A model generated the notes under the pieces. It saw only the letters and a program-made list of their open reading frames with translations. It had not been told where the DNA came from and made no database searches. Of a stretch of DNA of 64,000 nt, positions 1-53,174 are shown in pieces. This DNA is from Candidatus Amesbacteria bacterium (lineage in GTDB: Bacteria; Patescibacteriota; Microgenomatia; CAZETR01; Amesbacteraceae). The stretch is from NCBI GenBank assembly GCA_963736875.1, contig CAVTQH010000003.1:1756-65755 (forward strand). The letters run 5' to 3'. Each line of letters begins with the position of its first letter. The stretch's first letter is position 1. The translations under genes and the position numbers were made by a program.

Positions 1-59
1 CGGTGGTTGAATCCGTTTGCGCTATATCTCCCATACTTGAACCATCACAGGAAATGACA

Positions 60-1253
60 TTACCGACAAGTGATTGAGTGCCGGCGCACCAGGTAATACC
101 AATGTATTTGGTATTTGACGCTGTAAGTGCAATAGCAGGATTCATAGCCGATGCAAGCGGTGAATTTGCCGGTAAGAGGATTAGTTTCCCCAATATCGTA
201 GATGTTGTTTTGGGTGCTGTCTTCCCAGGCGAATATCTTTGATAAACGGAGAAAGTTCACCCTGCGGTGAGGAAGTATCTCCAGGCTGTTTGCTCCGGTT
301 CGATATTGGTGTTTTCCAAATCAACAATGTTACCGGTGGTTAAACAGGCGAAGGCATCATTGTCATAAGCATGTAAGCTAATGATATTTATGCCGTAATC
401 GCCAGGTTTAACATCGCCGAAGTTCCAGAAACGGTCTCCTTCTCCCAGATCTTTCAGATCCCAGAGAGTGCAGGTGCCACCAATAATCTGGTAGGTGCAG
501 TCGTATGGATGGACGCTGACATTATCCAGAAATACACCCAGGGAATTATTTGTACCACCGCCGATGAACTCTATCTTTGTTGTTGCATTGGTTGCAGTGA
601 AATCATAGGTGTGTTCTGTCCAAACAATGCTGCCTCCACCGGCAGACTGGTCCCTGTTGTTGGACCTGAACACCATCGATATTTACATAGAGAGTATTTT
701 CGGTACTAGCAGTGCTCGGGCGGGGTGAAAAGTAGTAGTGAAGTCTGTACTTTGCACCGGGAGTAGTGGCAATATCCTGGTAAATTTTTATCAGTGCCGG
801 CTCTCCGTTTAACGGATCGTTCGGGCCAAACCAATCGGAGTCAAGCTCTGCATATTGGTCGCCGTCTTGGGCAGGTCCCAGAACACCTTCATGGTATTCC
901 GCTAAGGCTGGTGTTGGCCGACTACGACCACCATAGGAGGTAGTACTTCCAACCCAATCAACAGTCCAAATAAGTCCGGCTGTGCCTGACGGGAATATTT
1001 GCCATTGAGCCGGATTTGTAACTTCGGGAATCTTCAAAACTGCCGTTTTGGATAAGGTTTACTCCGAGATTTTCCACACAGTCTTTAGTACACGGATTCC
1101 CGTCATACATGGCATACGTATGGTCGACTTTTAAATCTATTTTCCCTGCGGTAAATACATTATTGGTTGACGTTTCAGTGTCGCTGAAGTAGGCATTGGT
1201 GACATATAGTGCACCGCCGACTACAGCTCCAAGTGCGATGATGCTTAATAATA
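60..1253 (-). pseudogene. TasA/camelysin-like secreted protein, paralog E, split across at least 3 frames. It has a SipW-cognate-type signal peptide and a ~250-aa inserted beta-sandwich-like domain (NGSFE...DNVSV).
   Basis: Minus-strand translation from ~1253 gives ..KKILLSIIALGAVVGGALYVTNAYFSDTETSTNNVFTAGKIDL.., with no clean ATG. Continues in ORFs 603..1037 and 257..676, where DVKPGDYGINIISLHAYDND matches the paralog core motif. Frames differ. Confidence 0.5.
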
Positions 1254-1381
1254 TTTTTTTAATGTTTATTCACCCCCTTTCATCGTTTTCATACACAACC
1301 CTTAGTTCCGACATAACATCGGAACTCAGGGCTGTCCTCTATCCTTCGACTAGCTCAGGATAAGAGGAAAGCGAGAGCAGA

Positions 1382-2480
1382 TTAGTTTGGAAGGCAGAGA
1401 ACATGGAACACAATAGTGTTCCCGAGTCCATCTACCAAATCGTGCACGACATACCCTGTTTCCCCTAATGGGAATGTGTAATGGGGGTATACCGGGTAGT
1501 TAAATCCATCTACTGCGGGAGCGCTGGGTGCTGCCACTCCATTGCCTCCAACTGGATTAGTACTGGAGTCGATTCCGCCTCCAATAGCGGTTGTTCCTGC
1601 TGGACAAGACCATCCAGCCCAACCACCATCACCAAATCCTGCCTGAGTTCTATCAATCCTTATTGGTGGAACGCAAAGGAAGTTTGGATTATTACGTGAC
1701 TGCTCGATTCTGAAAGCCACATCAGCTGTTAAAGAATCAGTTTGGGTATCGTTACCCATACTGGCTCCATCACAGGAGATAGTGTGATCCACAATAGTCA
1801 TTGTTCCTGCACACCATTGAAGTCCGATACAAGTATTCGGATGTTCTGTTGATGTTGCTGGAAGTGGTAAACCATGGGTAGAATCAGCCAATGCGTAAGT
1901 CTTACCATTCAAAACGTCGCTAGCCGGACCTTTTTGGTTTGAGAATAACAGGACATCGTTTTCGTTGTACAAGTTATCACAATTGCCGTCAGCCCAAGCT
2001 GTAAATGTTAGGTTTTGAGCGAGCTTCTCCAACACTCTGGGTATTGTCAACTAGTGCTTCTGGTTCGGTCTGACCATTCTCAGCATTGACGAGATTGGTG
2101 ATATCAATACAAGCCCAGACGGGATTGTTATCGATATGCATACTGATGGTATTTTCACCATAATCGCCCGGTTTAATATCAGTTAAGTTAAAGAACTTTT
2201 CTGATACTAAGTTTCCTGCTGGCCAAGTACCGGTACATGCTGTTCCGATTAGACCGGGAAGGGGATTATTAACAAGTGTATTATCTTCATCAGCCCAAAA
2301 TCCGCCTATACAGACCATTCCATCATAATGTGCGGTAGAGTCGATGGTTAAGTCGACTGCGCCTGCCTGGAATTTATTACCTGTGGATGTTTCGGTGTCA
2401 GAGAAGAAAGCGTTGGTGGCTAAAAGAGCCACACCTCCAACTGCTCCGGTTACTAAAATTCCTAAAAGTATTTTTTTCAT
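1382..2480 (-). pseudogene. TasA/camelysin-like secreted protein, paralog D, with a SipW-cognate-type signal peptide and one apparent frameshift near 2000-2050.
   Basis: ORF 1989..2480 reads MKKILLGILVTGAVGGVALLATNAFFSDTETSTGNKFQAGAVDLTIDS... DIKPGDYGENTISMHIDNNPVWAC. ORF 1382..2050 continues (LTFTAWADGNCDN..YALADSTHGLPLP..TDSLTADVAF) and is homologous to the same regions of paralogs A and B. Confidence 0.55.
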
Positions 2481-2556
2481 TATTCTTATTCACCTCCTTT
2501 CAAAATGATTTCAAATTAATTAAATGTAATTTAAGGTAATTGATAAATCTTGACGG

Positions 2557-3599
2557 TCAGGTTACCGGAATTGTCTCCGTACCATCCCGTATTAATTGCG
2601 GGAGATGTTGTGAATCTCCGTCAAACATCAGGAATTTAATGGGATTTCCGGTACCAGTGTAGTTAAAGTTATAAATATGGGAGGCATTGTATGCACCCCA
2701 GTTTATAAATGCTCCGTCGACCTGCAAATCAAATTCGTTGGCACCCAGAAACCAAGGCGTGATATCGTATCCATCCATATGGGTAACCCATCCGTTTTTG
2801 GTGGTATATTCGGAGTCTGCCAAGTTAGACTGTTTGTCCACCACCCGGAAGCTTCCAAAAGATAATTTCCTCCCGAAGCCGGAGAAACGTTGGATAGAGT
2901 TTCGGTAAATTTATTAGAGGGAACAGTAACTGTATCGATCAGGGCATTGACGCATTTTTTGAGATTCGGATCCCAGATCCGGCCGGTGCCGGTGTCGGGG
3001 GAAGGGGATTGGGATTGTTTCTGACCTGGGTGGCATAGAAATCTTCGGTGAAAGTGAGATTATCACCCTGGGCCCAGTTGGTGACGGATGTGGCAAGATG
3101 GAAACTTTGGTACATTTTGATTTCAGTGACCCCCGGGATTTGACCTAAAGGAATCCAGCAGGAGACGGCGTCTGATAAGAGGATGTGGTCGTTAATATCA
3201 ATAATGGTTTGATTATTTGAAGTCAGATCGTATTCCATGTAATTTTGGATGTCTGATTTTTCCCCATTTTTTAATTCTTCTTCAATTTCCGGTTCGGTTT
3301 GGGTTCCTTGTGTCGGCCACCAATTCTTTTAAGATGCATCCAGACCCAGGCAGGATTATCGTCTATATTAAGGGTTTTTTCGACATTGTGATCGGATCGC
3401 CGGGTTTGAGGTCGGTGATGGTGACAAGAGCGGAGGGATTGTCACTTTGATTAATTTTTAAATCAAGCTTGCCGGCGGTGAAAGTATTACCTGAGGAAGT
3501 TTCGGTGTCGGAAAAGAAGGCGTTTGAGACAAGGAGAGTACTGGAGGCAACGACTCCGGTTACCAAAATGCTGGTAAGAACTTTTGGTAGAAACCGCAT
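2557..3599 (-). pseudogene. TasA/camelysin-like secreted protein, paralog C, fragmented over at least 3 frames.
   Basis: ORF 3363..3599 reads MRFLPKVLTSILVTGVVASSTLLVSNAFFSDTETSSGNTFTAGKLDLKI..DLKPGDP. Pieces at 2939..3238 and 2557..2844 on the same strand continue it. Confidence 0.45.
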
Positions 3600-3686
3600 G
3601 TTCTGTCCTGTAATTTTTGTACTAGTTGTAGTTTAGATTTGTTAAATTTTTAGTCAATTGGGACAAAGGGTATCACAGTATATAAA

Positions 3687-5895
3687 TTAGGGTGCAAGGC
3701 AACTGGGATTATTAGTGTTTATTTGTCCGGGAGTGCTGCAGCTTAAAATAAAATCGATAGTATTATTATTGGTGTCCTGGCCATCAGGGTAACGGGATAA
3801 TCCACTATCAAAAGCAATACCATCGTCGCCAGGGACAATAATCCCCATACCCTCAGTGTAACCGGAGGTGTCACCCTCATAACTAACGGTATCTATGAGG
3901 ACGGATTCAGAATATAACGTAACAGCATCGGGGCTGCCATTTTGAATCAAGGTAAGAATATTTAAATCGCAGTTGGGAACACTGGCTGAAGTGCCACAAA
4001 CGACAAAGTAATCGGAAGCGGCGAGGTTAATATCAGGGAGGTCTATAGTTTGGTAGGCGGAGGGAGGAAATACGGAACCATTAATTAGAAGGAGTCTATA
4101 TAAGCTAAGGTTTATGGAGTGGTCAGTGATATTTTTTAATTCAATAAATTCAGCATCATCTAGACCCGGTTGGTCGTAATCGATTTCGTTAATCACCAGG
4201 GGACTGTATCCCTCGGGTGTGGGGTCTCCGAGATCACATAGGCCATCACTATCGGAGTCCGGGCCGTCATTGCCCATGCTTGGGGTATAGGCCGGCCAAG
4301 GCGGAGTTGTCGGTGAAGAACTACTGGTGGGATTTTGGGAACAGTCGTCACAAGTGTCGGAATCAAAATCCTGGCATATCTGCGGATTCCACTGCGAAAC
4401 ATCATTAGGATCTATCGAGCCGTCGTTGTCATCGTCAGTGTCCAATACAATCAGCAAATGTGATCACCATCTGTATCCGGAAGATCCTTCGTCAGTCTGG
4501 CCATCGCCGTTATCATCTACGACCATTGCAGGTTTGCATCTCACGGCGGGTTACAATTCTCGTCGACGGTACCATCGCAATCGTTGTCTAGACCATCATC
4601 ACGAGTATTTCCGGAGCACCGGGATTAATTATGGGAGTCATCATCATCGCAATCTTGCCCATTTTCTATCCAGCCGGGAGTGGGATAACAGGCTTGAAAA
4701 GGTTTGAGTTCATATCCATATCCATCAGAGTCAAAATCGGGATACCAAGTCGGCATATCAATTGCGTTTTCATCAATTTCTCCGTCGCAGTCGTTGTCCA
4801 GACCGTCACAAACTTCAGGACCTGGAATACAGAGTGGTGTACAGACACTTGGTTGACCTGTACATCGATATCCCGGCTCGATAGTACAAGACCCGGAACA
4901 ACCATCACCGGGATTTGTATTGCCGTCGTCGCAGGTCTCATTTCCTTCAACCTGTCCGTCACCGCAGACAATACAGTCTTCATCAATTTGGCCGTCGTAA
5001 TCGTTGTCTTTACCGTCGCCGCAGACTTCGGTATATAGATCGGAGCATTTGAAAGTGTCCATGTGGCGGGACTGGACGGCGTTGAAGATGACGTCGCCAA
5101 CGAGACTGTCGGACTGAATAATGTTTGAAGTAGAGAGAGGTACTTTCCAGGAGACACCCAGACATGAGGTCTGATCTCCGGGGAGGGGACCGGTTTGAGT
5201 GGTGGAATCGGCAATGGCCCAGTATCCGCCCTGAGCCGGCTGGTCGGTGACCAAAACCTGTTCTACAGACTGACCTTCTACCCAATGGCATAATAAATGA
5301 TTCGGTTCTCCAGGCGGAGTAACAGTGTCGCAGATATTTTGGGGGACCGTACCGCAATCCGGATCCCAGTTGGGATCGTTGGTAACGCACTGTCCGGTGG
5401 TAGCTTGGGTATCCAGAATATTGTCACAGTCGGTGTCTTTCCAGACGGTAAAGAGAAGATTTTCTTTTAATTCTCCCTGACCGGGTCCGCAGTGTTGAAT
5501 CGATATCTGATTCCGGCTTTCACAGCCGTTATCGTCACTTGTCAAGTTGGCCACTTCGGCACACATCCAGGCGGGATTGTTAATGACATGCAGACTGATG
5601 GTGTCTTCACCGTAATCACCCGGTTTGACATCGGAAGATTAAAAAACAATTCTCCGGCCAAATCCTTCTGACCCCAGGTCCAGGAACAGGGTTCGGTGGT
5701 ATCTCCCCAGACACCGTTGGCACAAATTTTACCGTTGTAGTGGCAGGTGTTATCGACTCTGGAGATTAAATTTACCGGCGACGAATTTGTTGCCTGTCGA
5801 GACTTCGGTGTCTTTGAAATAGGCGACAGTGCCGCCGATAGTGAGGGCGATAACCGCACCGATCAGGCTGAATTTGAGAATTGTTTTTTTGGACA
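3687..5895 (-). pseudogene. Large TasA-like secreted protein, paralog B. Domains: signal peptide, TasA-like core, Cys-rich repeats (Myxococcus cysteine-rich repeat CGDGxxExxEx-CDDGNTxxGDGCSxxC; MopE-like CDGxDNDCDGxxDE) and a C-terminal lamin-tail domain. Multiple frameshifts.
   Basis: From 5895 the minus strand gives MSKKTILKFSLIGAVIALTIGGTVAYFKDTEVSTGNKFVAGKFNLQ. It continues in ORFs 5542..5859 and 4625..5566 (DVKPGDYGEDTISLHVINNPAWMCAE.., [42 protein letters not shown]), then 3687..4457 (NEIDYDQPGLDDAEFIELKN.. is lamin-tail-domain-like). Confidence 0.5.
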
Positions 5896-5909
5896 TGTTT
5901 ACTTATAAA

Positions 5910-7602
5910 TTAATTGCATGGCGGACAATAAAGGGCTCCGTTTACGCATTGATACCAGGGGCTCCAAAATGGACAACTTCTACACGAAGACCATTGTTCG
6001 GGAAATCTATCATCTACACCACTCCAACAATCGTCATCCATACCATTACATATTTCTGCAGCGTTTGGATGAACACTAGAATTGGAATCATTGCAATCAG
6101 TTTGCCCAAAAGGATAGATGTCATAAGAACCGCTGGGGCCGCATTTATTTATAAAGTCGTTAATAGCATAACCATCATTATCCTGGTCTTTGTAATAATT
6201 GTGCGTAGGGAATCCTTCGTCTGTTAATCCGTCGCAATCATTATCAATACTGTCACAGGTTTCTGTAGCACCAGGGTGAACAAGCGGGTTATTATCGTTA
6301 CAATCCGTGCTATTACTAACATAGCTAACGGGTGCAGCGCACGCCTGAGTAGTCAGAGACGATCTTCCGTAACCATCGCCGTCAATATCGCGGTAGTAAG
6401 TGTTTTTTACTCCTTCATCAACTGGCCGTCGCAATCGTTATCCAGGCCATCACAAATTTCCTCTGCCGGGATCGCCGGCGGTAGCGGAACAAATCGTTGG
6501 ACCGGAAGAATTTCGGGAATCACAGACATAGGTGCCGGAGGTGTGACATTGACCGACTGCCTACGGAACAAGCCTGGCCTTTATTGGTCCAGAGCGGACC
6601 TTCATCAACCTCTTTGTCGTAATCATTGTCCACACCGTCGCAGACTTCGGTGAAAAGATCGGTGCATTTGAAGTTGTCCATGTGGCGGGACTGGACTGCA
6701 GTAAATCTGATATCACCTTCGAAACTATCGGTTTGAATTATGTTGCTGGTTTCCAAGGGAACATTCCATGAGAATCCGTAACAGTTATTGGTGCCGCCGG
6801 GGAGGGGACCGGTTTGGGTGGTGGAATCGGCGATCGGCCAAAGAAGAGTATCAGCCGGTTGGTTGTTGACGACTACCTGTTCAGCCGGGGTACCGGGAGT
6901 TCCCGGGGTTCCGGGAGTCCAGTAACAGCCCGGTTCCGGTCTGTTACATTCTTCTTCCGTGTGAAAGTCGTCGCAGCTTACAGGCGGTCCATCACAGAAA
7001 TCTTCATTCCAATAGCAACCAAATATCTGACTTTCGGCTTCACAACTACCAGGATCAAGATAGTATGTGCAGGGATTAAAAAACTCACCCTCGCAATGGC
7101 CGTTAGTTCCGGGTACTCCCGGGGTCTCCGGGTCGAGGATGTTGTCACAGTCAGTATCTTTCCAGACAGTGAATTTGAGGTTGTTTTGCAGTTCACCTTG
7201 GCCAAGGCCGGGGGTGTCGCAACTGGTGGCAGGGTCATCGACCAGATTTTCCGGGAGTTCACAGCCGTTGTCATAGCTTTTGAGGTTATACAGTTCGGCA
7301 CAAACCCAGGCGGGATTGTTGTCGATTTTTAGAGTCAGGGTATTTTCACCGAAGTCTCCGGGTTTGACGTCATCGAAGTTGAAAAACAGTTCGTTGGATA
7401 AATCCTTGGGTGTCAGCCAATTACATTCGGTCACAATATCACCGTTGTAGGTGCATTGGCTGCCGACCTGGAGGTTGAATTTGCCGGCGACGAATTTGTT
7501 GCCTGCTGAGGTTTCTGTATCTTTGAAGTAGGAAACGGTGAAACCAATAACAGCAGCTACAGCTGCCCCGGCCAAAAGGATTTTGGGGAGTTTATGCTTC
7601 AT
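5910..7602 (-). pseudogene. TasA-like secreted protein, paralog A, with a SipW-cognate-type signal peptide and MopE-like Cys-rich repeats. Apparent frameshift(s) near 6440-6640.
   Basis: ORF 6520..7602 reads MKHKLPKILLAGAAVAAVIGFTVSYFKDTETSAGNKFVAGKFNLQ..DDVKPGDFGENTLTLKIDNNPAWVCAE..PGTPGTPGTP. Downstream ORF 5910..6434 carries repeated CNDxN..[21 protein letters not shown] motifs. Confidence 0.55.
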
Positions 7603-7710
7603 TAAAATTTCCGGGGGCAGAACGAAGGGCAGAAGAAACTGAACTTAAGCAGAAGTTTAAGCCCAAAAGGGGAAATGTCAAGAGAAGGGGATGATAGTAG
7701 ATGCACCTCG

Positions 7711-7783
7711 GCAGGCATAAATCCGTGCTCACGCGCAACTGTCGGAGCATGTGCCTGATTGCGCGCGGATTTATTATCCTGCC
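7711..7783. repeat. Imperfect long inverted repeat (hairpin) in the divergent intergenic region between TasA-like paralog A and fic.
   Basis: gcaggcataaatccg-tgctca-cgcgcaa (7711-7738) pairs with ttgcgcgcggatttat-tat-cctgc (7759-7783) around a ~20-nt loop. gcataaat recurs at 7790-7797. Confidence 0.4.
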
Positions 7784-7902
7784 TGCGTTGCATAAATATC
7801 CATACGCATTACCCCTGCATGCACACTATTAATATGTTGCGTCGAAAAACTGTCAGTCCTGTACCTTCAAGATTAATGCTTCCACCTGCTCACTGGAGGC
7901 TC

Positions 7903-7976
7903 AAATGTTAAACCATTGACATATTTTAAGACAAATGTTAAAGTTTTGCTTAAAGTTAACATATCGAGGCTAATAT
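7903..7976 (+). promoter_or_regulatory. Putative fic promoter/operator: three aTGTTAAa / GTTAAC-type repeats flanking a TTGACA -35-like hexamer, and a GAGG RBS 8 nt before the ATG.
   Basis: aaatgttaaa at 7903-7912, ttgaca at 7915-7920, aaatgttaaag at 7933-7943, taaagttaacat at 7951-7962, gagg at 7966-7969, ATG at 7977. Confidence 0.35.
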
Positions 7977-9116
7977 ATGCTTACCGATAAGGATATCCGA
8001 GAGCTTAAAAGGAGGGGAACACCCTCTTATTTACATCTGTTTCCGCCCGATACGCAAGGGTTATTCACTGATAAAGTTGTAGGACTGATTGGTGAGGCAA
8101 ACAGAGCTGTTGGTAACTTGAATAGTTATGCAAGAATAATTCCTAATCCTGATTTACTGATATGGCCGTTATTGTTAAAAGAGTCGTTGGCAAGTTCCAA
8201 AATTGAGGGGACTCAAGCATCAGTAAAGGATATATTGAGAAAGGATGTTAACCTCGGAACATCTGCTAGGGACATTGATGTCCGAGAAGTAATTAACTAT
8301 CGAGAAGCGACAAAGCTTGGTCTGAGTCTTTTGAATAAACTACCACTATCCGAGAGGTTAATTAAAGGAGTACATGGAAGATTGATGGCGGGAATGGTTC
8401 GTGGAGCGGAAAAAAGGACAGGGGATTATAGGCAAGGTCAAAATGCTATTGGAACTGAGGGAATTTTGGATGAAATCAAGTATCTTCCGCCTCCAGCTTT
8501 GGAAGTCCCGCAATTAATGCAAAATCTCTTCACATTTATCAACAATGATACTTTGGTTTACGATAAGTTAGTTCGCTGTGCGTTTATCCACTATGAGTTT
8601 GAAGCAGTTCACCCGTTTGCGGATGGTAATGGAAGGGTGGGAAGGCTGTTAATTACTCTCTACCTTCTTAAGGAAAGAGTTCTAAGGTACCCTTTAATAT
8701 ATCCGAGTGCTTATTTTTTGCATTACAAGGAAAGGTATGCAGATTGTTTGTTGAAAATTACAACTCAGGGGGACTGGACCGGTTGGTTGACATACTTCCT
8801 ACAGGGGATAGTGGAGCAGGCCGGAAGATCAGAAAGATTAATTGAAGAGATCGACTCAATTTATCAGGGTGCGAAAGAGGCGGTAAGACAGAATATGCAA
8901 AGCGTCCACGCTGAAAAATTAGTTGAGTTGGTTTTTAGGCGACCAATAGTGCTTGCTCCTGAAGTGTCCAGAGAGTTGATGGTGAATCATCAAACAGCAA
9001 TATCTCTGCTTAGAAGATTGTCCCAATTGGGTGTTTTGACTTTTAATCCAAAAACTAAGAAAAACATTCCCTTTATTAATTCAAAATTGATAGATTTACT
9101 GGAGAATGCGAGATAG
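7977..9116 (+). CDS. fic: Fic family protein (AMPylase/adenylyltransferase) with an N-terminal inhibitory motif.
   Basis: Canonical Fic motif HPFADGNGRVGRLL. Upstream (S/T)xxxE(G/N)-type inhibitory helix SSKIEGT. Intact 379-aa ORF. Confidence 0.85.
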   Translation: MLTDKDIRELKRRGTPSYLHLFPPDTQGLFTDKVVGLIGEANRAVGNLNSYARIIPNPDLLIWPLLLKESLASSKIEGTQASVKDILRKDVNLGTSARDIDVREVINYREATKLGLSLLNKLPLSERLIKGVHGRLMAGMVRGAEKRTGDYRQGQNAIGTEGILDEIKYLPPPALEVPQLMQNLFTFINNDTLVYDKLVRCAFIHYEFEAVHPFADGNGRVGRLLITLYLLKERVLRYPLIYPSAYFLHYKERYADCLLKITTQGDWTGWLTYFLQGIVEQAGRSERLIEEIDSIYQGAKEAVRQNMQSVHAEKLVELVFRRPIVLAPEVSRELMVNHQTAISLLRRLSQLGVLTFNPKTKKNIPFINSKLIDLLENAR

Positions 9117-9258
9117 CTTTTTTTTGGAGGTAGATTACAAGTAAATTGGTATTTGATATGTGGATGACTGCGCGCGTCGTATGAGACTCCTCCATCTGCT
9201 CGTCTTAGAGTAACAACATGCACGCTATTTATAAATCTGGCTGCTGTAAAATGTATTA

Positions 9259-10023
9259 ATGAATGTGTTGCAGGCGGTAATAATGGCGGCGGTGGAGGGG
9301 GTGACGGAGTTTTTGCCGATTTCTTCGACCGGGCACCTGATTCTGACGGCGAAGCTGTTGGCTATTGCACAGACTGATTTTGTCAAAAGTTTTGAGATTG
9401 TGATCCAGCTGGGGGCGATAACGGCCGTATTAATAATGTATGCCAGAAAGGTGCTGGCAAAATTGGCTTTGGTAAAACCGATATTGATTGCCTTTGTGCC
9501 GACGGCTTTGTGGGGACTTATGGCTTACAAATTTATAAAAGGATATTTGTTGGGAAATACAGCTGTAACTGTTTGGGCGCTTCTTCTGGGAGGAATTTTT
9601 ATGATTTGGTATGAGAGAAAAATGCGTAATAAAGAAGGTAAACTGAAGATTGAAGATCTGGACTGTAAAAAATCGCTTCAGATAGGATTATTTCAGGCGA
9701 TATCGATGGTTCCGGGGGTATCCAGGGCGATGGCGACGATTTTCGGAGGGATGGGAGCGGGACTGTCCCGGGCGGAAGCGACGCAGTTCTCGTTCCTTCT
9801 GGCAATTCCGACAATGGCGGCGGCAACGGGACTGGATCTTTTCAAATCGGGATGGTCGTTTACCACAGATGAATGGGGGATGTTATTTACGGGATTTATC
9901 GGAGCGTTTGTTTCGGCCTTCGTGGTGGTGAAGTGGCTGGTGGGGTATGTGCAGAAGCACGATTTTGTCGCCTTCGGAATATACAGAATTGTTTTAGCTC
10001 TGATATTTTTGTTGATTATTTAA
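9259..10023 (+). CDS. uppP: Undecaprenyl-diphosphatase (BacA/UppP).
   Basis: N-terminal EGVTEFLPISSTGHLIL motif, multi-TM 254-aa protein, C-terminal GxGxSRxxxT-like region. Confidence 0.8.
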   Translation: MNVLQAVIMAAVEGVTEFLPISSTGHLILTAKLLAIAQTDFVKSFEIVIQLGAITAVLIMYARKVLAKLALVKPILIAFVPTALWGLMAYKFIKGYLLGNTAVTVWALLLGGIFMIWYERKMRNKEGKLKIEDLDCKKSLQIGLFQAISMVPGVSRAMATIFGGMGAGLSRAEATQFSFLLAIPTMAAATGLDLFKSGWSFTTDEWGMLFTGFIGAFVSAFVVVKWLVGYVQKHDFVAFGIYRIVLALIFLLII

Positions 10024-10046
10024 TTACCTGACGTAATTAGGGATTA

Positions 10047-10132
10047 AGCCATTCGGCATTCGCAAATGCGTTTCTCGACTACCTGGTCGTTGCCTGGATC
10101 CAGCTGCGATACTATTTGCTGGAATGCCTGCA
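10047..10132. repeat. ~86-bp intergenic repeat, copy 1. Its direct-repeat partner is at 14628-14729.
   Basis: gccattcggcattcgcaaatgcgtttctcgactacctggtcg/ttgcctggatccagctgcgatactatttgctggaatgcctgca matches 14628-14729 almost exactly, apart from a 16-bp insertion in copy 2. Confidence 0.8.
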
Positions 10133-12346: not shown

Positions 12347-12808
12347 ATGATTTATATTGCCGCCGACCACCGGGGATTTGAGCTTAAGGCCAGAATAAAT
12401 GACTGGCTGAAGGGTCGCGGATATGAATTTGAGGATCTGGGGGCTTATGAATATAAACAGGAAGATGATTTTGTAGATTATGCGATTGACGTAGCCCAGC
12501 GGGTAGCTTTGGATCCGGATAAAAACCGGGGAATTCTAGTCTGTAAAAGCGGGGTGGGGATGAATATTGCGGCGGATAAAGTAAGGGGTATCAGGTGCGG
12601 GTTGGGTTTTGCTCCGGACCAGGTGCATTCTGCCAGAAAAGACGACAATATAAATGTACTGGCACTGGCTGCGGATAATACCGATGAGATTCAGGCCTGG
12701 GAATTGGTGGAGAAATTCCTGGAAACGGAGTTTGTGAAATCGGAGAATTATTTGCGAAGAATTGAGAAAATATCCCGGTATGAAAGGGAACTTGCCCACG
12801 GTAAGTGA
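12347..12808 (+). CDS. rpiB: Ribose-5-phosphate isomerase B (RpiB/LacAB family).
   Basis: MIYIAADHRGFELK.., GILVCKSGVGMNIAADKV.. are hallmark RpiB motifs. AAGGCGG RBS 10 nt upstream of ATG 12347. Confidence 0.85.
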   Translation: MIYIAADHRGFELKARINDWLKGRGYEFEDLGAYEYKQEDDFVDYAIDVAQRVALDPDKNRGILVCKSGVGMNIAADKVRGIRCGLGFAPDQVHSARKDDNINVLALAADNTDEIQAWELVEKFLETEFVKSENYLRRIEKISRYERELAHGK

Positions 12809-13709
12809 AGCTGACGTAGCCGAGAAACGGGTACTGGTACGGGTGGATCTGGATATGCCCAACGGGCACAATCCCAGAATAAGGGCGACGGAGGAAATAA
12901 TCAGCTGGCTTTTGGAGAAAAAAGCCGCGTCAATCAAGGCTATCGGACACAAGGGGGATTATCTGGTTATCCATGATCTGAGGCAAAAATTTCCCAGTGT
13001 GGAATGGAGTGACAGACTGCGGGATGACGCCAGGGAAAAGGAAAACAACACAAACTATGCCCAGGAACTGGCGGGGGACTGCGAGGTGTATATAAATGAA
13101 GCGTTTGCGGTATCACACCGGGTGCATACCTCGATAGTGGCACTGCCCAAAATTGTTAGAGAGAGGGGCGGGAAAGTGTTTACGGGATTTCGGTTTGCGA
13201 AAGAAATTGCCAGCCTGGACCAGGTATGGACCCACCCGGGATGGAAAGTACTGGTGATCGGGGGGGCAAAAGCTGCGGATAAAGCGGAGTTGGCAATAAA
13301 GCTGGCTCCCAGACTGGACCGGGTGTTGGTAGGGGGACTGCTGCCCCAGGTGATGGAGGGAGCAACGGCAAATATTTATCCGGGAATATTAAGAGATGAC
13401 GAAAAAGATCTGACGGATGAAACAATCGCCGATTTTTGTAAACAGATCAGCGCAGCACGGATAATAATTTTGTCCGGGCCGATGGGCAGGTTTGAAGAGC
13501 CGGGATCGGAAAAGGGGACAAAAGAGATATTTACGGCAATTGCCGGATCCCTGGCTTATAAAGTGGCCGGCGGGGGAAATACCGAAGACGCGCTGGCAAA
13601 ATTCGGCCTCATTGAAAAGTTTGACTGGCTTTCCGTCGGCGGGGCGGCAATGCTTGAATATTTGGCAACCGGAACCTTACCGGCTATACAGGCTATAAAC
13701 CCGGTATGA
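12780..13709 (+). CDS. pgk: Phosphoglycerate kinase, unusually short (~310 aa); copy 1 of a tandem pair.
   Basis: KRVLVRVDLDMPNG (PGK N-term RVDFNVP-like), AFAVSHRVHTS (hinge AHRAH-like), KVLVIGGAKAADK, KVAGGGNTEDAL, SVGGAAMLEYLATGTLPAIQAI (C-terminal PGK signature). Confidence 0.75.
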   Translation: MKGNLPTVSEADVAEKRVLVRVDLDMPNGHNPRIRATEEIISWLLEKKAASIKAIGHKGDYLVIHDLRQKFPSVEWSDRLRDDAREKENNTNYAQELAGDCEVYINEAFAVSHRVHTSIVALPKIVRERGGKVFTGFRFAKEIASLDQVWTHPGWKVLVIGGAKAADKAELAIKLAPRLDRVLVGGLLPQVMEGATANIYPGILRDDEKDLTDETIADFCKQISAARIIILSGPMGRFEEPGSEKGTKEIFTAIAGSLAYKVAGGGNTEDALAKFGLIEKFDWLSVGGAAMLEYLATGTLPAIQAINPV

Positions 13710-14768
13710 AAGGAAATTTGCCCGGTTTGGAGAATATTAATGTTGAGGGTAAAAAAGTATTGGTGGTGGGGGCTTTTGATGTGGACGATGCGGATAATCC
13801 CCGGGCGGATTCGATCAGGGCGGTAGTGGAGTATTTAAGGACCAGGCAGGCTTTGAAAATAAGAGTGATCGGGCATTGTGAAACCGATTTTGATTTGGCA
13901 GGTCTGTTAAGACAAGAATTTGCGGGAGTGGAGTTTGACAGCACGAGTGAGAAAAGACCCCCGGGAGAAAGAAAACAATGAGGAGTATGCAAGACAGCTG
14001 GCTTCCGATTTTGAGGTTTATGTGAATGAGGATTTTGCCACTTCACACCGGAAGTACACTTCGTTTGCGGCACTGCCGCAATTTATGAAAAGCCAGGGGA
14101 GGGAAGTGTGTTTGGGAATGAGATTTGAGAAGGAGCTGGAAATGTTATCGACCGTGTGGAACCATGAGGGCAGAAGAATATTGGTAATCGGAGGAGTAAA
14201 AATTGATGACAAACAGAAGTTTGCGGAGGACATGAAGGAGAAATTTGCGGTGGTTTTGAAAGGCGGATTGTTGCCGGGGGCAAGATTAAGACCGGACGGA
14301 ATGGATATTACCGATGAAGCTATTGATGAATATGTAAAAGAGATTCAGAAGGCGGAAGTGATATTGGCGGCGGGAGTGATGGGAAAGTATGAAGATGCCG
14401 ATTGTGCCAAAGGAACCAAAGCGATTTTGGAGGCAATTGCAGATAATCCCCATGCTTATAAAGTGGCCGGGGGCGGGGATATTGAAATGGCGATTTCGAC
14501 TTACAAATTGACGGAGAAATTTAACTGGATTTCTGTCGGCGGGGGAGCAATGCTTGAGTATCTGGCGCGGGAACTGCCGGGGTTGGAAGCGGTGTCGGGT
14601 AGGGTTGCGGATTTAACACGAAGTGTAGGCCGTTCGGAGTTCGCAAATGCGTTTCTCGACTACCTGGTCACCCCGCCTGGCGGCGGGTTGCCTGGATCCA
14701 GCTGCGATACTATTTGCTGTAACTCCTGCACGGCCGCTATGGTGCAAAGGTTTGATCGCCACTATTAA
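13706..14768 (+). pseudogene. pgk: Phosphoglycerate kinase, tandem paralog copy 2. Frameshifted near 13930-13980 and lacking a stop codon before the downstream repeat.
   Basis: ORF 13706..13981 (MKGNLPGLENINVEGKKVLVV..) and ORF 13920..14768 (..REKENNEEYARQLASDFEVYVNEDFATSHRKYTS..KVAGGGDIEMAI..SVGGGAMLEYLARELPGL) align residue-for-residue with copy 1. The junction needs a 1-2 nt indel. The reading frame runs through the 14628-14729 repeat with no PGK-like stop. Confidence 0.65.
14628..14729. repeat. ~100-bp repeat, copy 2 (direct repeat of 10047-10132), with a 16-bp internal insertion.
   Basis: gccgttcggagttcgcaaatgcgtttctcgactacctggtca[ccccgcctggcggcggg]ttgcctggatccagctgcgatactatttgctgtaactcctgca. 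Confidence 0.8.
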
Positions 14769-15829
14769 GGTGGCGCATTTGGATTGGAGGATTGGCAGGC
14801 TGGCTTTGCGGATCGGACTTTTGAAGCACCACAATGAGATGGAATTTGTGGCGATCAATACTTCCGGATCGATGGAAACGGATGGCTGGTGCCACCTACT
14901 AAATCAGGATACGACTTACAGGAAGTTTGAGATTGAAGTAAAAGCCGTGAATGTAAAAAAAGCCAAAGAAGCGACTGATGAGGATCCTTTAATCGGATAT
15001 CTGGAAGTTACCGAGTATGGGACTTAAAATTCCCGTGTTGGCCCAGAAAGATCCGGAAAAACTGCCGTGGAGCAAATACGGGGTGGAAGTGGTGATGGAA
15101 TGCACGGGGAAATTTACGGATGAAGCAGGGGCTTTGAAGCATGCCAAAGCAGGAGCTAAAAAAGTGATTATTTCAGCTCCGGCTAAGGGAGGAAATGTAG
15201 GAACATTTGTGATGGGAGTAAACGAAGTGGACGGGGGACACCAGGTGATTTCCAATGCCAGCTGTACCACGAACTGCATTACTCCGGTGGCGGCGGTAAT
15301 CCACAAAAAATTCGGGATAGTAAAAGCCATGATGACGACAGTTCATGCTTATACAGATGACCAGGTGGTGCAGGACGGATCACACAAGGATCTGCGGCGG
15401 GCAAGAGCCGCCGCCGCCAATATTGTGCCGACTTCCACGGGAGCCGCGATTGCCACGACCGAAGTGATACCGGAATTGAAATCGATGTTTGACGGGATTG
15501 CATTAAGAGTGCCGGTTTTGACCGGATCAATTACGGATTTTGTGTTTGTAACATCCCGTAAAGTTACCCGGGAGGAAGTGAACGAGGCATTAAAAGAGGC
15601 GACACAAAGCCCGATATACAGGGGTATTTTGGGGATGTCGGGAGTGGACGGGGTGCCGGAACATCTGGTTTCCTCCGATATTATCGGAAGTAACTACAGC
15701 GCTGTCGTAGACCCCGAATTTACCCAGGTAATTGACGGGGATCTGGTGAAAGTACTGGCCTGGTATGATAACGAATGGGGGTATACGAACCGGCTGGTGG
15801 AGCAGGCGATAAGATTTGGATTAGAATAA
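14752..15829 (+). CDS. gap: Glyceraldehyde-3-phosphate dehydrogenase, type I, with an apparent +1 frameshift near 15015-15025.
   Basis: N-part (ORF 14647..15027) reads KVAHLDWRIGRLALR..EFVAINTS..(GFGRIGR-like). C-part (ORF 15017..15829) has SNASCTTNCITPVAAVIHKKFGIVKAMMTTVHAYT, the catalytic Cys peptide. Start is a probable TTG/GTG near 14752-14770. Confidence 0.75.
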
Positions 15830-16422: not shown

Positions 16423-17048
16423 TGCCCAACGGAAATATCGAAGAGAGACTGATCAGGACGGTAACTTGTTTAGGATTTGCGGACGCCCATTCCCAGGATA
16501 ATCTGTACCGGGAAGCATATGCCGTGGGTAAAGCCCTGGCCAGTGCCGGTTATATCATAGCCAACGGCGGCGGTCCGGGAGTGATGAAAGCGACGACTGA
16601 AGGGGCGAAATCGGCGGGAGGACATGTGGTGGGGGTGACATTTTATCCCAAAGACGTATCCAATTTTGAAGGCCGGGATAAGACAAACAGGATTGATGAG
16701 GAAATAAAAACGGAACATTATCTGGAAAGGACTCTGAAACTTCTGGAAGTGGGGCAGGCATATGTGATATTTAAAGGCGGTACCGGGACTATTTCGGAAT
16801 TCGGGATGGCCTGGGGACTGGCCCGGCTGTATTTCGGACACCATAAACCGCTGATTCTGTACGGCAAGTTTTGGGAAAACATCATGGCCGCTTTTATGTC
16901 CAACATGCGGATGCGGCCGGAGGAATTTCAGGTATACCGGGTGGTGGACAGTCCGGAAGAAGTAGTTAAATCACTGGAGCTGTTTGAAGTGATGCTTAGG
17001 CATAACCAGCATGCGGTCAGTCCGCAGGAAAAACCGTTCCAGCTATGA
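16413..17048 (+). CDS. LOG family protein (cytokinin riboside 5'-monophosphate phosphoribohydrolase-like; TIGR00730 Rossmann-fold nucleotide-binding).
   Basis: ANGGGPGVMKATTEGA and KGGTGTISE motifs (GGGxGxM..PGGxGTxxE). Confidence 0.7.
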   Translation: MAVMPNGNIEERLIRTVTCLGFADAHSQDNLYREAYAVGKALASAGYIIANGGGPGVMKATTEGAKSAGGHVVGVTFYPKDVSNFEGRDKTNRIDEEIKTEHYLERTLKLLEVGQAYVIFKGGTGTISEFGMAWGLARLYFGHHKPLILYGKFWENIMAAFMSNMRMRPEEFQVYRVVDSPEEVVKSLELFEVMLRHNQHAVSPQEKPFQL

Positions 17049-17900
17049 GCCTTAATGAAGAACAGATTCAAAAAATTGAGCTGAAAGCGGATGAGATCAG
17101 GAAAGACATTATTAAAATGCTTTTAGCAGCCGGATCCGGACATGCGGCCGGGGCATTGGGGATGGCGGATGTGTTTGCCACGCTTTATTTTTCGGGAATT
17201 CTGAACTGGGATCCGGATAATCCATGGAAAGAAGACCGGGACAGGGTAATACTTTCAAACGGGCATATTTGTCCGGTCTGGTATGCGACCTTTGGCTCAT
17301 ACAGGGGCATTTTCACACCAGGAGCTGGATACTTTGCGAAAATTGGGCAGTAAACTTCAGGGACACCCGCATTACAAAGACCTGCCGGGAATTGAAAACA
17401 GCGGCGGGCCTTTGGGTCAGGGAATATCACAGGCGGTGGGACAGGCGCTGGCGGCAAGAATAGATATGGCCAGATACAGAGTATATTGTCTGATGTCTGA
17501 TGCGGAGCTGCAGGAAGGACAGACATGGGAAGCGCTCCAGTTTGCCGGGAATAACCGGCTGCGCCATTTAACTGTTTTAATTGACAGAAATAATATTCAG
17601 ATTGACGGATATACGGAACAGGTAATGCCGGTGGAACCGGTTTTGAATAAACTGATGGCTTTTAACTGGTTTGTGCTGGAAGTGAACGGAAATCATGTCA
17701 GGGAAATTTATGAGGGACTGGAGCGGGCAAAAGCCATCAGGGAGCGGCCGACGGCAATTATTGCCCACACCATACCCGGTAAGGGAGTGGAATTTATGGA
17801 AGGAAATTATAAGTGGCACGGAATTCCGCCGAACAAAGAGCAGGCGGTTGAGGCTTTGAAACAATTGAGATCTTTATGGGGAAAAATAAGTATGGAGTGA
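17045..17900 (+). CDS. tkt: Transketolase N-terminal subunit (split transketolase). Apparent +1 frameshift at ~17292-17296 (an extra T in a T-run).
   Basis: ORF 17045..17353 has ..AGSGHAAGALGMADVFATLYF..ILSNGHICPVWYAT. ORF 17283..17900 continues ..LAHTGAFSHQELDTLRKLGSKLQGHPH..GPLGQGIS... Deleting one T from gacctttggctc restores WYATLAHTGAF. Confidence 0.8.
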
Positions 17901-17901
17901 A

Positions 17902-19410
17902 TCAGATCCGGGATTTGTAGTATTGGATGACATTATCGATGGAGAGAATTTTACCGGAACAGCCGGTTTTTAAAGTGTAGATGGTGTTGTAGTCATCGTT
18001 TTCAGAATTGGTGACAGTAGCCCACGGAGTATAGAAGCGGTGCAAGCCGCCCTGTTCCTGGTGGCGGGCGACATAAAAGACGGGGACGGAAGCGGTCAGG
18101 CAATCATATTCATCCAGAGGGATATCCACGACATGATCGTCCAGGTAACCTAATATGGTATCCGGGCGGCGGCGCAGGTAATTGAAAACAGCCTGTTCGG
18201 GATTGCCGGCGTTGGCGGCAACACAGACGTAAACCGGTGAATCCGGAAGGTGATTCTGCAGATATTTTACGGTTGCCATAGCCTGGTAGCCGGTGTCGCG
18301 GCCTTGAAAGTAGCCGATTATTTGGGAATGGCGGGTAACCAGGGAAATGAGGCGAAAATAGGCAGGGGGATGGATGATCAGAGAGATGGTGAGAACAAGT
18401 GAGGGAATAATCACCAGAGGGAGAAGTTTTATATGTCCGGAAAGCCAGCGGGCGCAAAAGATAAGAAGCGGCGGAAGGTAGGGAGCAAGATATCGGGGTG
18501 TGGGATTTCGAACCAGAAGAGTGGTAATAATTAAAGTCAGAATGGTCCATAATGCAACCACCGGTATTTTTTTGCGGCTGAATATTAAAACGGCAAAAAT
18601 TAAGGGATTAAAATACCAAAAAATAATTTCCATATGAGCCAACAGGTTTCTGATCCAGGTTAATACCGGGAATCCCAGAAGTTCTCTCACAGTAAAGGTA
18701 AAATCCGAGACGTTATGAATGGTTATCCAGAAGGTTTCCTGGAATAATACCGGGGACATAACCAATAAGATACAGGTAAGTGTGAGAAGGGTATGGGTGA
18801 GCAGGAGATAGCGGGTGCGGGAATTTTTCCAGGCATTGTAGAAGATAATCAGGAAGGCGGCGGGAATAAAAATCAATCCATTGGCTTTGACCAGGCAACC
18901 CAGTCCCAAAGTTATTCCCAGCCAAAGCGACCGGTATACTCCCGGTTTTTCCAGATACCGGCAGAGAAAATAACAGGACCAGACCCCTGCGGCCATAAGA
19001 GCACTTTCCATAAGTGCCTGGCGGTCAAAAAAGATAAAAATCGGAATCACAATATAAAGAAGGCAGGAAATGACTGCAGTCCGGAAATCAACCATGGATT
19101 TGGCTAAACGGTACAGGCCGAAAAAAGCCAGCCAGCCGGTCAGAACACCGACCAGACGTCCTGCTAAAAGGGGATCAGAAAACAGAAACTGGAATATACC
19201 AAAAAACCACATGATAAGGGGCATTTTGTAGAAGGACAAAGGGAAGAAAAACAGACCGGGAATGTTGACAGTGCGCCAGCCCCAGTCGATAAATGTCGAT
19301 TCATCAATGAAGACGGGCAGGAGAGTGAGATTCGGAAGCCGGGTGATAAAAAAAAGCAGGGAGAGAGAGACAAAGGGATGAAGGCGGACGAATTTTTTCA
19401 GAGTATGCAC
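17902..19410 (-). CDS. Family 39/83 glycosyltransferase (ArnT/PMT-like dolichyl- or undecaprenyl-phosphate-sugar:protein/lipid transferase), multi-TM.
   Basis: TM-rich ~500-aa protein: ..[54 protein letters not shown]... The ORF-track extension to 19728 covers low-complexity sequence antisense to tktC. The likely start is the GTG at 19410 ([13 protein letters not shown]..). Confidence 0.6.
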
Positions 19411-19429
19411 AGTGTTATTATATTTGATA

Positions 19430-20398
19430 ATGGATGAAAAGAATTTACTGGCGACCAGGGACGGGTGGGGGGATGCGCTGGTGGAATTGGGGAAGACGGA
19501 TAAACGGGTGGTGGTATTGACTGCCGATCTGAAAGAATCGACCAGAGTGGAAAGATTTGCCGGGGTTTTTCCCGAAAGGTTTGTGGAGTGCGGGGTGGCG
19601 GAGCAGAATATGATGGGGATTGCGGCGGGGCTTGGCGGCTTCCGGAAAAATCCCGTTTGTGTCCTCATATGCGGTATTTTCCCCGGGAAGAAACTGGGAT
19701 CAGTTACGGGTGTCGGTGTGTTATTCAAATTTACCGGTTGTTAGTCGGAGGGCATCATACCGGGGTGTCGGTGGGACCGGACGGGGCGACACACCAGGGG
19801 CTGGAAGATATTGCCATTACCCGGGTGCTGCCGAATATGACGGTGGTGGTACCGGCAGATTATGAAGCAGACGAGGAAAGCGGTGAAAGCGGCGGTTGAT
19901 GCGGGCGGACCGGTATATATCAGACTGACAAAGGAAAAGACGCCGGTCGATGACAAAAAAAGAAAGCAGGTTTGAAATCGGGAAAGCGGAAGTAGATTTG
20001 GGATATCGCAAGGTTCGGACAACCGCCGCAGGCGGCGATTATCGGGTGCGGACCGATTTTATATGAATGCCTCTTGGCAGCAAAAGAGCTGGAAAGCGAG
20101 GGGATAGGGGTAAAAGTGGTAAATAATCACACGGTAAAGCCAATGGATGAAGAAACAATTATCGGTAGTGGCCCGTGAATGCGGAGCAGTGGTGACGGCA
20201 GAGGATCATCAGATTGCGGGGGGAATGGGATCAGCTGTCGCCGAATTTCTGATTTCCAATTACCCGATTCCTATGGAATTTGTGGGGGTAAAGAACAGTT
20301 TCGGAGAATCGGGAACACCGGATGAACTGGCGGAAAAGTACGGATTGAAAGCCAAGGACATTGTCCTAGCAGTGAAGAAGGTTATGGGTAGGAAATAG
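19430..20398 (+). CDS. tkt: Transketolase C-terminal subunit, fragmented by at least 2 apparent frameshifts.
   Basis: [68 protein letters not shown] (ORF 19412..19744); ..[38 protein letters not shown] (ORF 19588..19899); C-term ..[37 protein letters not shown] (ORF 20147..20398). Confidence 0.75.
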
Positions 20399-21957
20399 TG
20401 TTTGCAGGGTGAATTAAATTAAGAGTAGAAAGGATAGATTTGGCTATTATGGCTGTTTGGCCTGCAGTGCCACCTTCGGAAACAGGCATTTCATCTACCC
20501 GGTGAATTCGGGTAGTGGAAAGTATACTTTTACTTGAAGGCTGCTGGCGGTAAAAAATGATTTTGTAATAACCCCAGGGGGGATCTCCAATAAAATTTCC
20601 TCCGATTTCATATTCATGCTTAACAAGCAGATCCTGGTAACCAACTTCATTCAGGATATCAATTATTCTTTGGTATTTAGTATTAATAAATTCATTTTCG
20701 GAAGTATTTTTAAAATTTATAACCAAAGCAAATTCGTCTTTTTCAAAATCCGGGTCGATTACTAATTTTGACTTCGTCAGTATTATCAGAGATATAGAAG
20801 TTTGGAGGATATCGGATTTCAAATCCAATATCGGAACTTTTATAAGTTTTCCATTTTGTGGTATCGGGTAAATAAGTTGAGAAGGGAGTAGGTGAAAGAG
20901 CGGGAAGAAATTTGAAGGTGGAGAGGATTTGATTGTAATTTTGATAAACTTCTGAATCCAAATACGGTATGTCGCTGGGCTGGACGGAAAAATCAAAGAT
21001 AAAGTTATCGGCTTTCAGATATGTTGCGACAGTAGTGTAATCGGCTGCCAACCACTGTTCTTGTCTTTCGACCCCAGGTATCGAACCGACAGTAACATTT
21101 TTTGAAGAAAGGATTTTTTTACTGGACTGGCCTTCCCAACCAGTTGTGTTTTTCTGATCCATATCTTTTAAATAGGAAGTGAGGGTTTGATTTTGGGCTT
21201 CGGTAGCGGCGCCCTGAAAAATACTGCCGTCGGGAGCTTTCAGAGTGATGAAATGCATGTCCTGAAAGTTGGAGGAGTGGGTAATCCATTCCCAATCAGC
21301 AGGGGCTTGGAGTTGGTATGTTTGAAGTTCGTCAGAGTAGGTTTTCCAGGAAGAAATTTCAGGGAGAAATTTGAAGGTGGAGAGGATTCGATAAAATTGT
21401 GCAGTTTCTTGAGAATTGAAATCCACCTCCGGATTGTCAAGAGTGATGCGGTAAAGAGAGGAATTAAGAAAAGTAAAAGCATGAATACCAACGTCCCTGC
21501 AGCAACCTCCGGTAACGAGGAGAAACTCCTGATTACCAATTTTTTTAAATTCTTGGCTATTATATTTCAGAACTTCCGGGTTGGCTCTGATTACCTTGTC
21601 GAGTTCTTCGAGGTTTTGCGGGCTTCCTATACTGTCGTAATCAGGCAGGATGCTTATTGTTCCTCTGTACATATTGTCACTGTTTGCTTCAGGCGGAGAA
21701 AAGGAAATAACCTTGGGATAGAATTTTTTGTCAACAGACCATCCGGAAGGATATGAGATTTGAAAGTTATTTTGGCTATCAGAGTAAGTGATCCAAGATA
21801 CAATAGCGGGTGCTTGAGGAGGAGGAGGGGTAACAGACGAGGGGGATGGACGTACAGGAATGAACAGAACAAAAATGGCGCTGGAAAGAAAAATGGTAAA
21901 AGATAGTAGAAGGATGAAGAATCCGGAGAGGCGGGGAGGATAGTATGATTCGTTCAT
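20382..21957 (-). CDS. Secreted/membrane-anchored hypothetical protein with three internal PsbP-like repeats (..YxxILSTFKFLPxxS..WKTYxxxxxgFEIRYP..). One apparent frameshift near 20760-20780.
   Basis: ORF 20743..21957 has an N-terminal hydrophobic anchor and repeated segments (FYRILSTFKFLPEISSWKTYSDE / YNQILSTFKFLPALSPTPFSTYLPDTTKWKTYKSSDIGFEIRYP). ORF 20382..20996 continues in another frame; the DEVKISNRP/DFEKDEF junction was verified. Confidence 0.55.
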
Positions 21958-52439: not shown

Positions 52440-53117
52440 GTGTATAGAGCAGAAGATCGAAGAAAAGCAGTAGAACTCAGATTAAAGGGATTGAGTTATT
52501 CACAAATTAAAGAACAGATTAATGTTAAAAATGGAACTCTTAGTTACTGGTTAGTTAATTATCCTTTAACTTTGGAACAAAAAAATAAGCTATATAAGAG
52601 GAGGGATGTTTGGGTAGAAAAATTCAGAGAGACAATGAGGAAGAAAAGAGAAATAAAGTTGATCAAGATATTAAATCAGGAAAAGAAAAAGTTGGGAGGA
52701 ATTACTAAAAGAGATATTTTGTTGTTGGGAGCAGGATTATATTGGGGTGAGGGGCGTAAGGAAGGTAGTGCTGCGAGTATAAGCAATAACGACCCAAGCG
52801 TAATAAATTATTTTTTATTCTGGATTGAGAAATGTTTTAGATTAAAACGAAAAGATCATAAAATTCGAATTTATTTGCATTTATATAGTGATATGGATAT
52901 TGAGGGTGAAATTGGTTATTGGGCTCAAATTTTAAACGTGGACAGAGATCAATTTGCTAGACCTTATATTAAAATTTCGAAAAGATCAGAGATTGATCAA
53001 AAAGGTTTTGGACATGGTACGTGCCATGTCCAGATCGCTGATGTTAAAATCAAAGAGCAGGTTTTAGCAATAATTAAGCTCATTTCAAAATTAAATGGAT
53101 CCGTCGTTCACCGGTAG
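52440..53117 (+). CDS. LAGLIDADG-like homing endonuclease with an N-terminal helix-turn-helix. Low GC; 3' end overlaps the tRNA by 21 nt.
   Basis: DILLLGAGLYWGEGRKEGSAASI aligns to the LAGLIDADG consensus (LAGfxDGDGS). N-terminal RLKGLSYSQIKEQINVKNGTLSYWL is HTH-like. Composition is visibly AT-rich relative to its neighbours. Confidence 0.55.
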   Translation: MYRAEDRRKAVELRLKGLSYSQIKEQINVKNGTLSYWLVNYPLTLEQKNKLYKRRDVWVEKFRETMRKKREIKLIKILNQEKKKLGGITKRDILLLGAGLYWGEGRKEGSAASISNNDPSVINYFLFWIEKCFRLKRKDHKIRIYLHLYSDMDIEGEIGYWAQILNVDRDQFARPYIKISKRSEIDQKGFGHGTCHVQIADVKIKEQVLAIIKLISKLNGSVVHR

Positions 53118-53167: not shown

Positions 53168-53174
53168 CAAATAT

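Follow-up and report, generated by a model that had tools for sequence, protein, structure and literature searches.

What is to be made of five adjacent genes for apparently secreted proteins when not one of them can be read through in a single frame? The question is posed by the left end of a 64,000-nt stretch of Candidatus Amesbacteria contig CAVTQH010000003.1, the whole of which is termed the window here and in which all coordinates are positions. An earlier sequence-only reading had seen in it a tandem array of TasA/camelysin-like paralogs, all frameshifted, and had offered real decay, phase variation or assembly trouble as the reason. The answer favoured here, and with some confidence, is that it is an operon-like array, of a type belonging to bacteria of the Candidate Phyla Radiation (CPR), of five genes for secreted TasA-like jelly-roll proteins, and that the approximately 24 frameshifts are in all probability errors of assembly.

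The five paralogs and their products

The five consecutive same-strand paralogs that had been claimed are present; six-frame reading places them on the minus strand within 1-7602, separated by spacers of only 14-118 nt. They are lettered A to E from right to left (Table 1). The right end of the span initially given for them, 60-7602, holds but the left does not, as gene E runs off the edge and the feature truly starts at 1.

The SipW-cognate signal peptides that had been read in all five can be recognised by profile: the requisite hidden Markov model (HMM), TIGR04088 (cognate_SipW, cut-off 19 bits), is passed by each N-terminus (A 23.9, B 37.6, C 24.6, D 29.2 and E 35.7 bits). A core thought to be common to the five is clear in four, the motif (V/I)KPGD..GE.T.S....NNP.W.C being present in A, B, D and E and degenerate in C. 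Beyond signal peptide and core the products diverge, and the additions that had been named, MopE and Myxococcus-type Cys repeats, the PGTPGTPGTP linker, a lamin-tail domain (LTD) in B and a ~250-aa insert in E, were all borne out by profile or sequence checks. The gene A protein runs from SipW-type signal peptide through a jelly-roll core, with its Cys-rich insert and PGTPGTPGTP linker, to three MopE-type Cys/Asp repeats (PF11617, 107.6 bits, in three stretches after frame correction). In the gene B protein the order is signal peptide, core, TIGR02232/DUF4215 Cys repeat (TIGR02232 56.5 bits, DUF4215 also matched), MopE repeats (42.1 bits), an Asp-rich Ca-binding-like linker and a C-terminal LTD (PF00932, 46-48 bits), an architecture identical to that of two intact homologs, P0051 and P0026. 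In gene C the signal peptide and degenerate core are followed by a C-terminal beta-rich domain without a family assignment, and gene D has a conserved Gly/Trp/Cys-rich C-terminal domain. The gene E insert, a beta-sandwich of DUF642 / choice-of-anchor-C-like character, stands between signal peptide and core; its DUF642 score of 26.3 bits is just under the cut-off of 27, and the TIGR04362 score of that gene, 28.6 bits, is below the cut-off of 120.

Is TasA, then, the proper comparison? At the level of fold it is: a TasA-type jelly-roll is found and TasA is the best structural match, with the archaeal AbpA (PDB 7UEG) and the donor-strand filaments of CanX cannulae and Saci_0406 threads much less similar to the array proteins. 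The AlphaFold2 model of the gene A protein has a mean predicted local distance difference test (pLDDT) of 83.4 and a predicted template modelling score of 0.71, and in this monomer residues 23-43 are unstructured (pLDDT 50-70), as expected for a free donor strand, which may be taken as an indirect hint. At the level of sequence the link to Peptidase_M73/TasA is thin. After frame correction genes B to E reach the gathering score of PF12389, 22.5 bits, with 24.1, 35.1, 23.9 and 24.4 bits respectively, over profile positions ~6-66 of 196 only, and the TasA equivalog model NF046066, for which the cut-off is 450 bits, gives at best 18.7 bits (gene C). Judged by these scores none of the five is an ortholog of TasA. 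With TasA the array proteins have in common the motifs F.AG..DL and (L/V)KPGD. Camelysin, the CalY protein of Bacillus cereus and also in PF12389, is a further comparison: B to E reach the gathering score and the National Center for Biotechnology Information (NCBI) calls one relative of the gene D subfamily (2065 database relatives at E<=1e-20) a ‘CalY family protein’, but the match spans only the signal peptide and first strand, and nothing points to protease activity. Overall, membership of a SipW-cognate, TasA-like family is supported by the signal-peptide model, the fold and the genomic context in relatives, and to that extent the original family assignment stands.

Frame breaks within and beyond the array

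That every copy is frameshifted proved correct, and more heavily so than had been implied. Frameshift-aware alignment to intact homologs, together with inspection of the junctions, places 24 events: three in A, about 11 in B, four in C, one in D (put at its site by five of the six homologs aligned) and five in E. A codon-usage Viterbi caller was too noisy to be used for the counts, since it fused neighbours and invented shifts. Sixteen of the 24 are one-base insertions and eight are deletions. Within gene B the events at 5521 and 5492 form a compensating pair inside a seemingly open reading frame (ORF), and seven others fall in 4447-4630. The deposited sequence does carry the shifts, as fragments of 360, 309 and 222 aa from the source contig (193,912 bp) are in public protein collections.

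Are the array genes alone in this? The sequence-only reading had contrasted them with large genes nearby (PBPs, NrdJ, ACD). Those are indeed intact, but the contrast misleads, for in the stretch 13.9-20.4 kb the frame is broken in no fewer than five further genes: a PGK paralog, GAPDH, RPE and the N and C subunits of transketolase. An 8.4-kb short-read contig of a related organism (L081; ENA ERZ27266656), 86.6% identical in nucleotide sequence to the window over 5.6 kb, has the same genes in the same order and all intact. Nine single extra bases in the window relative to that contig match the frame breaks in GAPDH, RPE and both transketolase subunits, and at all nine comparable sites it is the window that has the extra base. 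When transketolase C is rebuilt from its seven frame segments, the resulting 325-aa protein shows 86% full-length identity with the intact proteins of relatives, and residues 3-322 align to the C chain of a split transketolase (PDB 6yaj, E 3e-87). With the same kind of one-base indel breaking GAPDH, RPE, the transketolase subunits and the PGK paralog, the array cannot be singled out by its frameshifts.

The disturbed sequence is in patches, one at 1-7.6 kb and the other at about 13.9-20.4 kb. The latter probably reaches 20.75 kb: on the minus strand a further +1 near 20745, joining ORFs 20743-21957 and 20382-20996, is likely, which would extend the affected stretch to ~20750. In 7.7-13.7 kb and about 22.6-53 kb the ORFs are long, reaching 951 aa, and lie close together, and ORF coverage is 56% in the array versus 91% in the remaining window. 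The stretch 7757-10078 is matched at 99.96% identity by an independent Logan contig (L080, run ERR12040022), with a single mismatch and without gaps; the contig stops 155 nt short of gene A.

Two features in and beside the second patch may be recorded in passing. Of the two short PGK-like genes in tandem at 12762-14768 (plus strand), the related contig carries just the first, with an unrelated ORF of 150 aa after it, and the second copy, the frameshifted one, may have arisen by duplication in this lineage. The transketolase N and C genes (together spanning 17045-20398) are parted by an opposite-strand gene for a PMT-family (GT39-like) membrane glycosyltransferase, and this odd layout is kept in the related contig at 3632-6984.

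Could the shifts in the array be of use to the cell, whether through phase variation at slippery repeats or through programmed ribosomal or transcriptional frameshifting that selects between subunits? Surface adhesins are classic phase-variable loci, and paralogs with variable tips would suit antigenic or host-range switching. The sequence around the shifts is nevertheless of the wrong kind. Tandem Repeats Finder detects no repeat in 1-8000, and instead of lying in simple repeats or homopolymers, as at a phase-variable locus, the indels have mixed and mostly non-homopolymeric contexts in which no k-mer, GATC included, is significant after multiple testing. With up to 11 shifts in a gene, some of them 10-30 nt apart, the message would be unreadable by any known mechanism, and housekeeping genes have the same lesions. 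A regulatory role is accordingly scarcely to be credited.

Might the region instead have been mis-assembled, as a collapse or a chimera of a smaller or larger number of paralogs, with the frameshifts marking false joins? Arrays of paralogs with repeated Cys-rich modules are hard to assemble, and it is just short of gene A that the Logan contig, from the same run, ends. Yet no two copies agree in more than 79% of their DNA over ~110 nt, apart from 91% in one stretch of 44 nt, and for this low identity a collapse was rejected; each corrected gene is colinear from end to end with intact homologs whose architecture matches its own, the breaks are 1-nt indels and not junctions, and single-copy genes are also hit. 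This explanation too is very improbable. Of the earlier suggestion of assembly trouble in a paralogous region, then, assembly or consensus error is retained, and the tie to paralogy is given up on account of the low identity and the affected single-copy genes.

A greater claim to attention, albeit still an unlikely one, is that the five are genuine pseudogenes and that a surface-fibre cassette is decaying in this lineage. All five are disrupted, some of them repeatedly; surface proteins are often dispensable; the indel density in the array, about 3.2/kb, is approximately twice the about 1.5/kb of the 13.9-20.4-kb patch; and where its paralogs have ATG, gene E has ATT (1261-1263, minus strand), 7 nt after a ribosome-binding-like GGGGGTG, which is either a rare start codon or a substitution error. 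From real decay, nonsense mutations and a deletion bias are expected, with central glycolytic and pentose-phosphate genes spared. The deletion bias in bacterial pseudogenes was reportedly described by Mira, Ochman and Moran in 2001. None of these signs is found. Once the 24 indels are corrected, giving the ORF lengths of Table 1, there are zero in-frame stops in about 2,430 codons; each short frame segment is still homologous to intact relatives, with family motifs and Cys patterns kept; insertions outnumber deletions two to one; and the affected genes are not confined to dispensable ones, as GAPDH, RPE and both transketolase subunits are broken by the same insertions and are intact in the syntenic relative. 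With no stops, no repeats and the same lesions in housekeeping genes, decay and phase variation are both set aside as the meaning of the frameshifts.

There is left the explanation that the array indels are single-base errors of the deposited assembly, which we hold to be highly probable, as a strong inference and not a demonstration. The pattern, with random one-base insertions, patches on the kb scale and coding content conserved, fits long-read or gap-filled consensus noise.

A conserved operon in relatives

A database search with gene A finds 129 relatives at E<=1e-3, and wherever their source is named it is one of the Patescibacteria/CPR. All are intact proteins (327-625 aa for the top 54), and many have modules of adhesin type, namely VWA, LTD, laminin-G, lectin-like, TSP3, Notch-LNR and ice-binding domains. 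A cultured relative, Ca. Microsyncoccus archaeolyticus, likewise has a homolog (P0033, locus L002). When 79 related CPR loci were scanned with an HMM of the N-terminal core, two to four tandem same-strand copies were found in 69, and the core ORF was uninterrupted in 175 of the 186 copies. In 53 of the 79 an ORF with the motif SGSMxP lies <=1.5 kb downstream of the last copy, and five of these ORFs, when tested, gave 115-131 bits with TIGR02228 (archaeal-type signal peptidase I, cut-off 51.85) and 110-126 bits with the SipW model. After the peptidase gene comes, as a rule, one for a large protein that combines a Peptidase_M73-type (SipW-type) N-terminus with an LTD; in a complete Campbellbacteria genome the unit reads TasA-like, TasA-like, sipW, LTD protein, FN3-like protein. 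Such operons (e.g., at locus L069, 9929-15594) sometimes also include an FN3- or Ig-like protein, and the second or third paralog in many of the loci has a ~50-residue insertion that splits the match to the N-terminal core HMM.

The array of the window is a larger version of this common CPR operon. It shares with the TIGR04088 arrays of other Patescibacteria the signal-peptide model, the core, the Cys-rich, LTD or lectin-like additions and the tandem same-strand order. It differs in having five copies before any sipW versus two to four in the loci examined, in the fusion of its LTD to the second paralog where others have a separate gene after sipW, and in that every copy carries indels in the deposited assembly. 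PF12389 homologs are known to occur in Patescibacteria (PMC9245690), and apart from that paper's mention no study dedicated to a CPR operon of SipW/TasA/camelysin type was found in the literature searched.

Where is the signal peptidase of the window's own array? The motif [SGTA][GSTDNE]SM.P, which covers SGSMxP, is in no frame of the window, in agreement with the earlier remark that no SipW-type peptidase is present there. Its absence can be put down to position, since what follows gene E falls outside the left end of the window, and by analogy with relatives sipW would most likely be just beyond position 1.

Table 1. Coordinates of the array genes, their neighbouring intergenic region and the frame-broken housekeeping genes, with the sites at which frame changes
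Feature	Position	Strand	Description	Frame breaks
Gene A	5910-7602	-	TasA-like, ~563 aa after correction	+1 near 6558, +1 near 6464, -1 near 6421
Gene B	3687-5896	-	TasA-like, ~734 aa after correction	5761+, 5634-, 5521-, 5492+, 4630+, 4603-, then five +1 at about 4548-4447
Gene C	2557-3599	-	Most divergent paralog, ~348 aa after correction	All -1: near 3395, 3310, 2977, 2846
Gene D	1382-2480	-	TasA-like, 365 aa after correction	Single +1 near 2024
Gene E	1-1263	-	3' end cut by window edge, >=419 aa after correction	All +1: near 1032, 650, 283, 240, ~170
Divergent intergenic region, gene A / Fic-domain gene	7603-7976		Promoter scan	
PGK-like paralog, second copy		+	Split ORF	~13950
GAPDH		+	N-terminal ~80 aa in other frame	15012; N-terminus garbled further at 14760-14790
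Ribulose-phosphate epimerase (RPE)		+	Split ORF	16249
Transketolase N subunit		+	Split ORF	17290
Transketolase C subunit	19440-20398	+	Seven frame segments, at least 6 switches	Extra bases vs L081: 19632, 19741, 19865, 19948, 19995, 20163

Of the remaining genes, that divergent from the array encodes a Fic-domain protein (7977-9116, plus strand) with Fic_N, Fic and SoFic-like C-terminal domains according to precomputed Pfam hits. In the intergenic region between it and gene A the top sigma-70-like match is TTGACA-16-TAAACT (minus strand, 7681->7654), ~50 nt upstream of gene A; the scan's 16 sigma-70-like sites are no excess over shuffled sequence (mean 14.2), and the match is one to consensus only. 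A 951-aa ORF at 24858-27713 (plus strand) resembles, to the eye, an ADP-forming acetyl-CoA synthetase that has gained a ferredoxin-reductase-like (FAD/NAD-binding) module at its C-terminus, and after it come what are presumably subunits like those of 2-oxoacid:ferredoxin oxidoreductase. A tRNA-Ile with anticodon TAT (53097-53168, plus strand) is close to a tRNA with anticodon CAT (54896-54968, minus strand); the former is uncommon in bacteria, where AUA is usually decoded by a lysidine-modified CAT tRNA.

A putative fibre and what it may be for

What weighs against the answer given at the outset? On the side of the proteins, sequence similarity to Peptidase_M73/TasA does not go past the initial ~50-60 positions of the profile, A is the one gene with no PF12389 match at E<=0.01, there is no sipW inside the window, and that CPR members of the family form fibres would be by extension from TasA. 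On the side of the frameshifts, the indels are denser in the array than in the second patch, and the ATT of gene E, if an error, is a substitution unlike the indels elsewhere in the array. For the array the verdict of artefact leans on two things, the analogous breaks in housekeeping genes and the lack of in-frame stops. Look-ups and homology searches for array proteins returned only frameshifted fragments; a homology search with rebuilt transketolase C and corrected gene D gave no near-identical intact copy from the same sample; and exact-protein look-ups of gene A, LOG, PGK1, ACD and PMT led to no independent assembly, the Fic gene alone giving the Logan contig mentioned above.

How might the products work? 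A cell-surface fibre or adhesin with variable modules, as had been proposed, is kept as the best functional inference because the genes carry variable modules of adhesin type; fibre assembly and the part in adhesion are both conjectural. Each protein would be exported by Sec, and a dedicated SipW, which is a signal peptidase I of archaeal type, would cleave it at the conserved site (T/S)xA|(Y/F)F. The N-terminal FSDTETSxGNxFxAGxxDL so freed would serve as a donor strand, joining one subunit to the next in an extracellular fibre in the manner of TasA in Bacillus. The paralogs would bring distinct modules, be they Cys/Asp-rich metal- or Ca-binding repeats, lamin-tail or DUF642-like lectin fold, and would act as alternative or minor subunits lending the fibre adhesive specificity. 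Such fibres are plausible host-attachment or matrix structures of episymbiotic CPR bacteria.

A close known system is tapA-sipW-tasA of Bacillus subtilis (TasA fibre, PDB 8AUR). In common are the SipW-type signal peptide, the jelly-roll fold, the presence of a second secreted partner protein and, in the operon of the CPR relatives, a dedicated archaeal-type signal peptidase, which archaeal donor-strand filament systems are without (PMC9245690). Unlike TasA, the array and CPR genes have large Cys-rich inserts, C-terminal adhesin-type domains and two to five paralogs, and any fibre of theirs is putative.

For readers of this contig there is a caution: neither decay nor phase variation should be deduced from the frameshifts in all five genes, and gene calls from the source contig, the three public fragments among them, are to be regarded as truncated artefacts. 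The family is already widely annotated and the five-copy array adds a member to it; the residual interest is in the uncharacterised operon as a whole and not in the locus. It is possible, and put forward tentatively with the doubts at present somewhat the stronger, that the widespread CPR operon, with its two to five TasA-like paralogs, SipW-type peptidase and lamin-tail or Ig-like proteins, builds donor-strand fibres with exchangeable adhesive tips for attachment to hosts. If so, the Cys-rich, lectin-like, VWA and LTD modules would be paralog-specific tips and the array of five an expanded version. The best database matches of the array proteins are only 54-68% identical, versus 86% for the transketolase C subunit, a difference in keeping with rapid diversification through selection on host range. 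These TasA-like proteins, a very large family common in ultrasmall CPR bacteria and accompanied by a conserved sipW, may plausibly be the means by which these episymbionts attach to their hosts.

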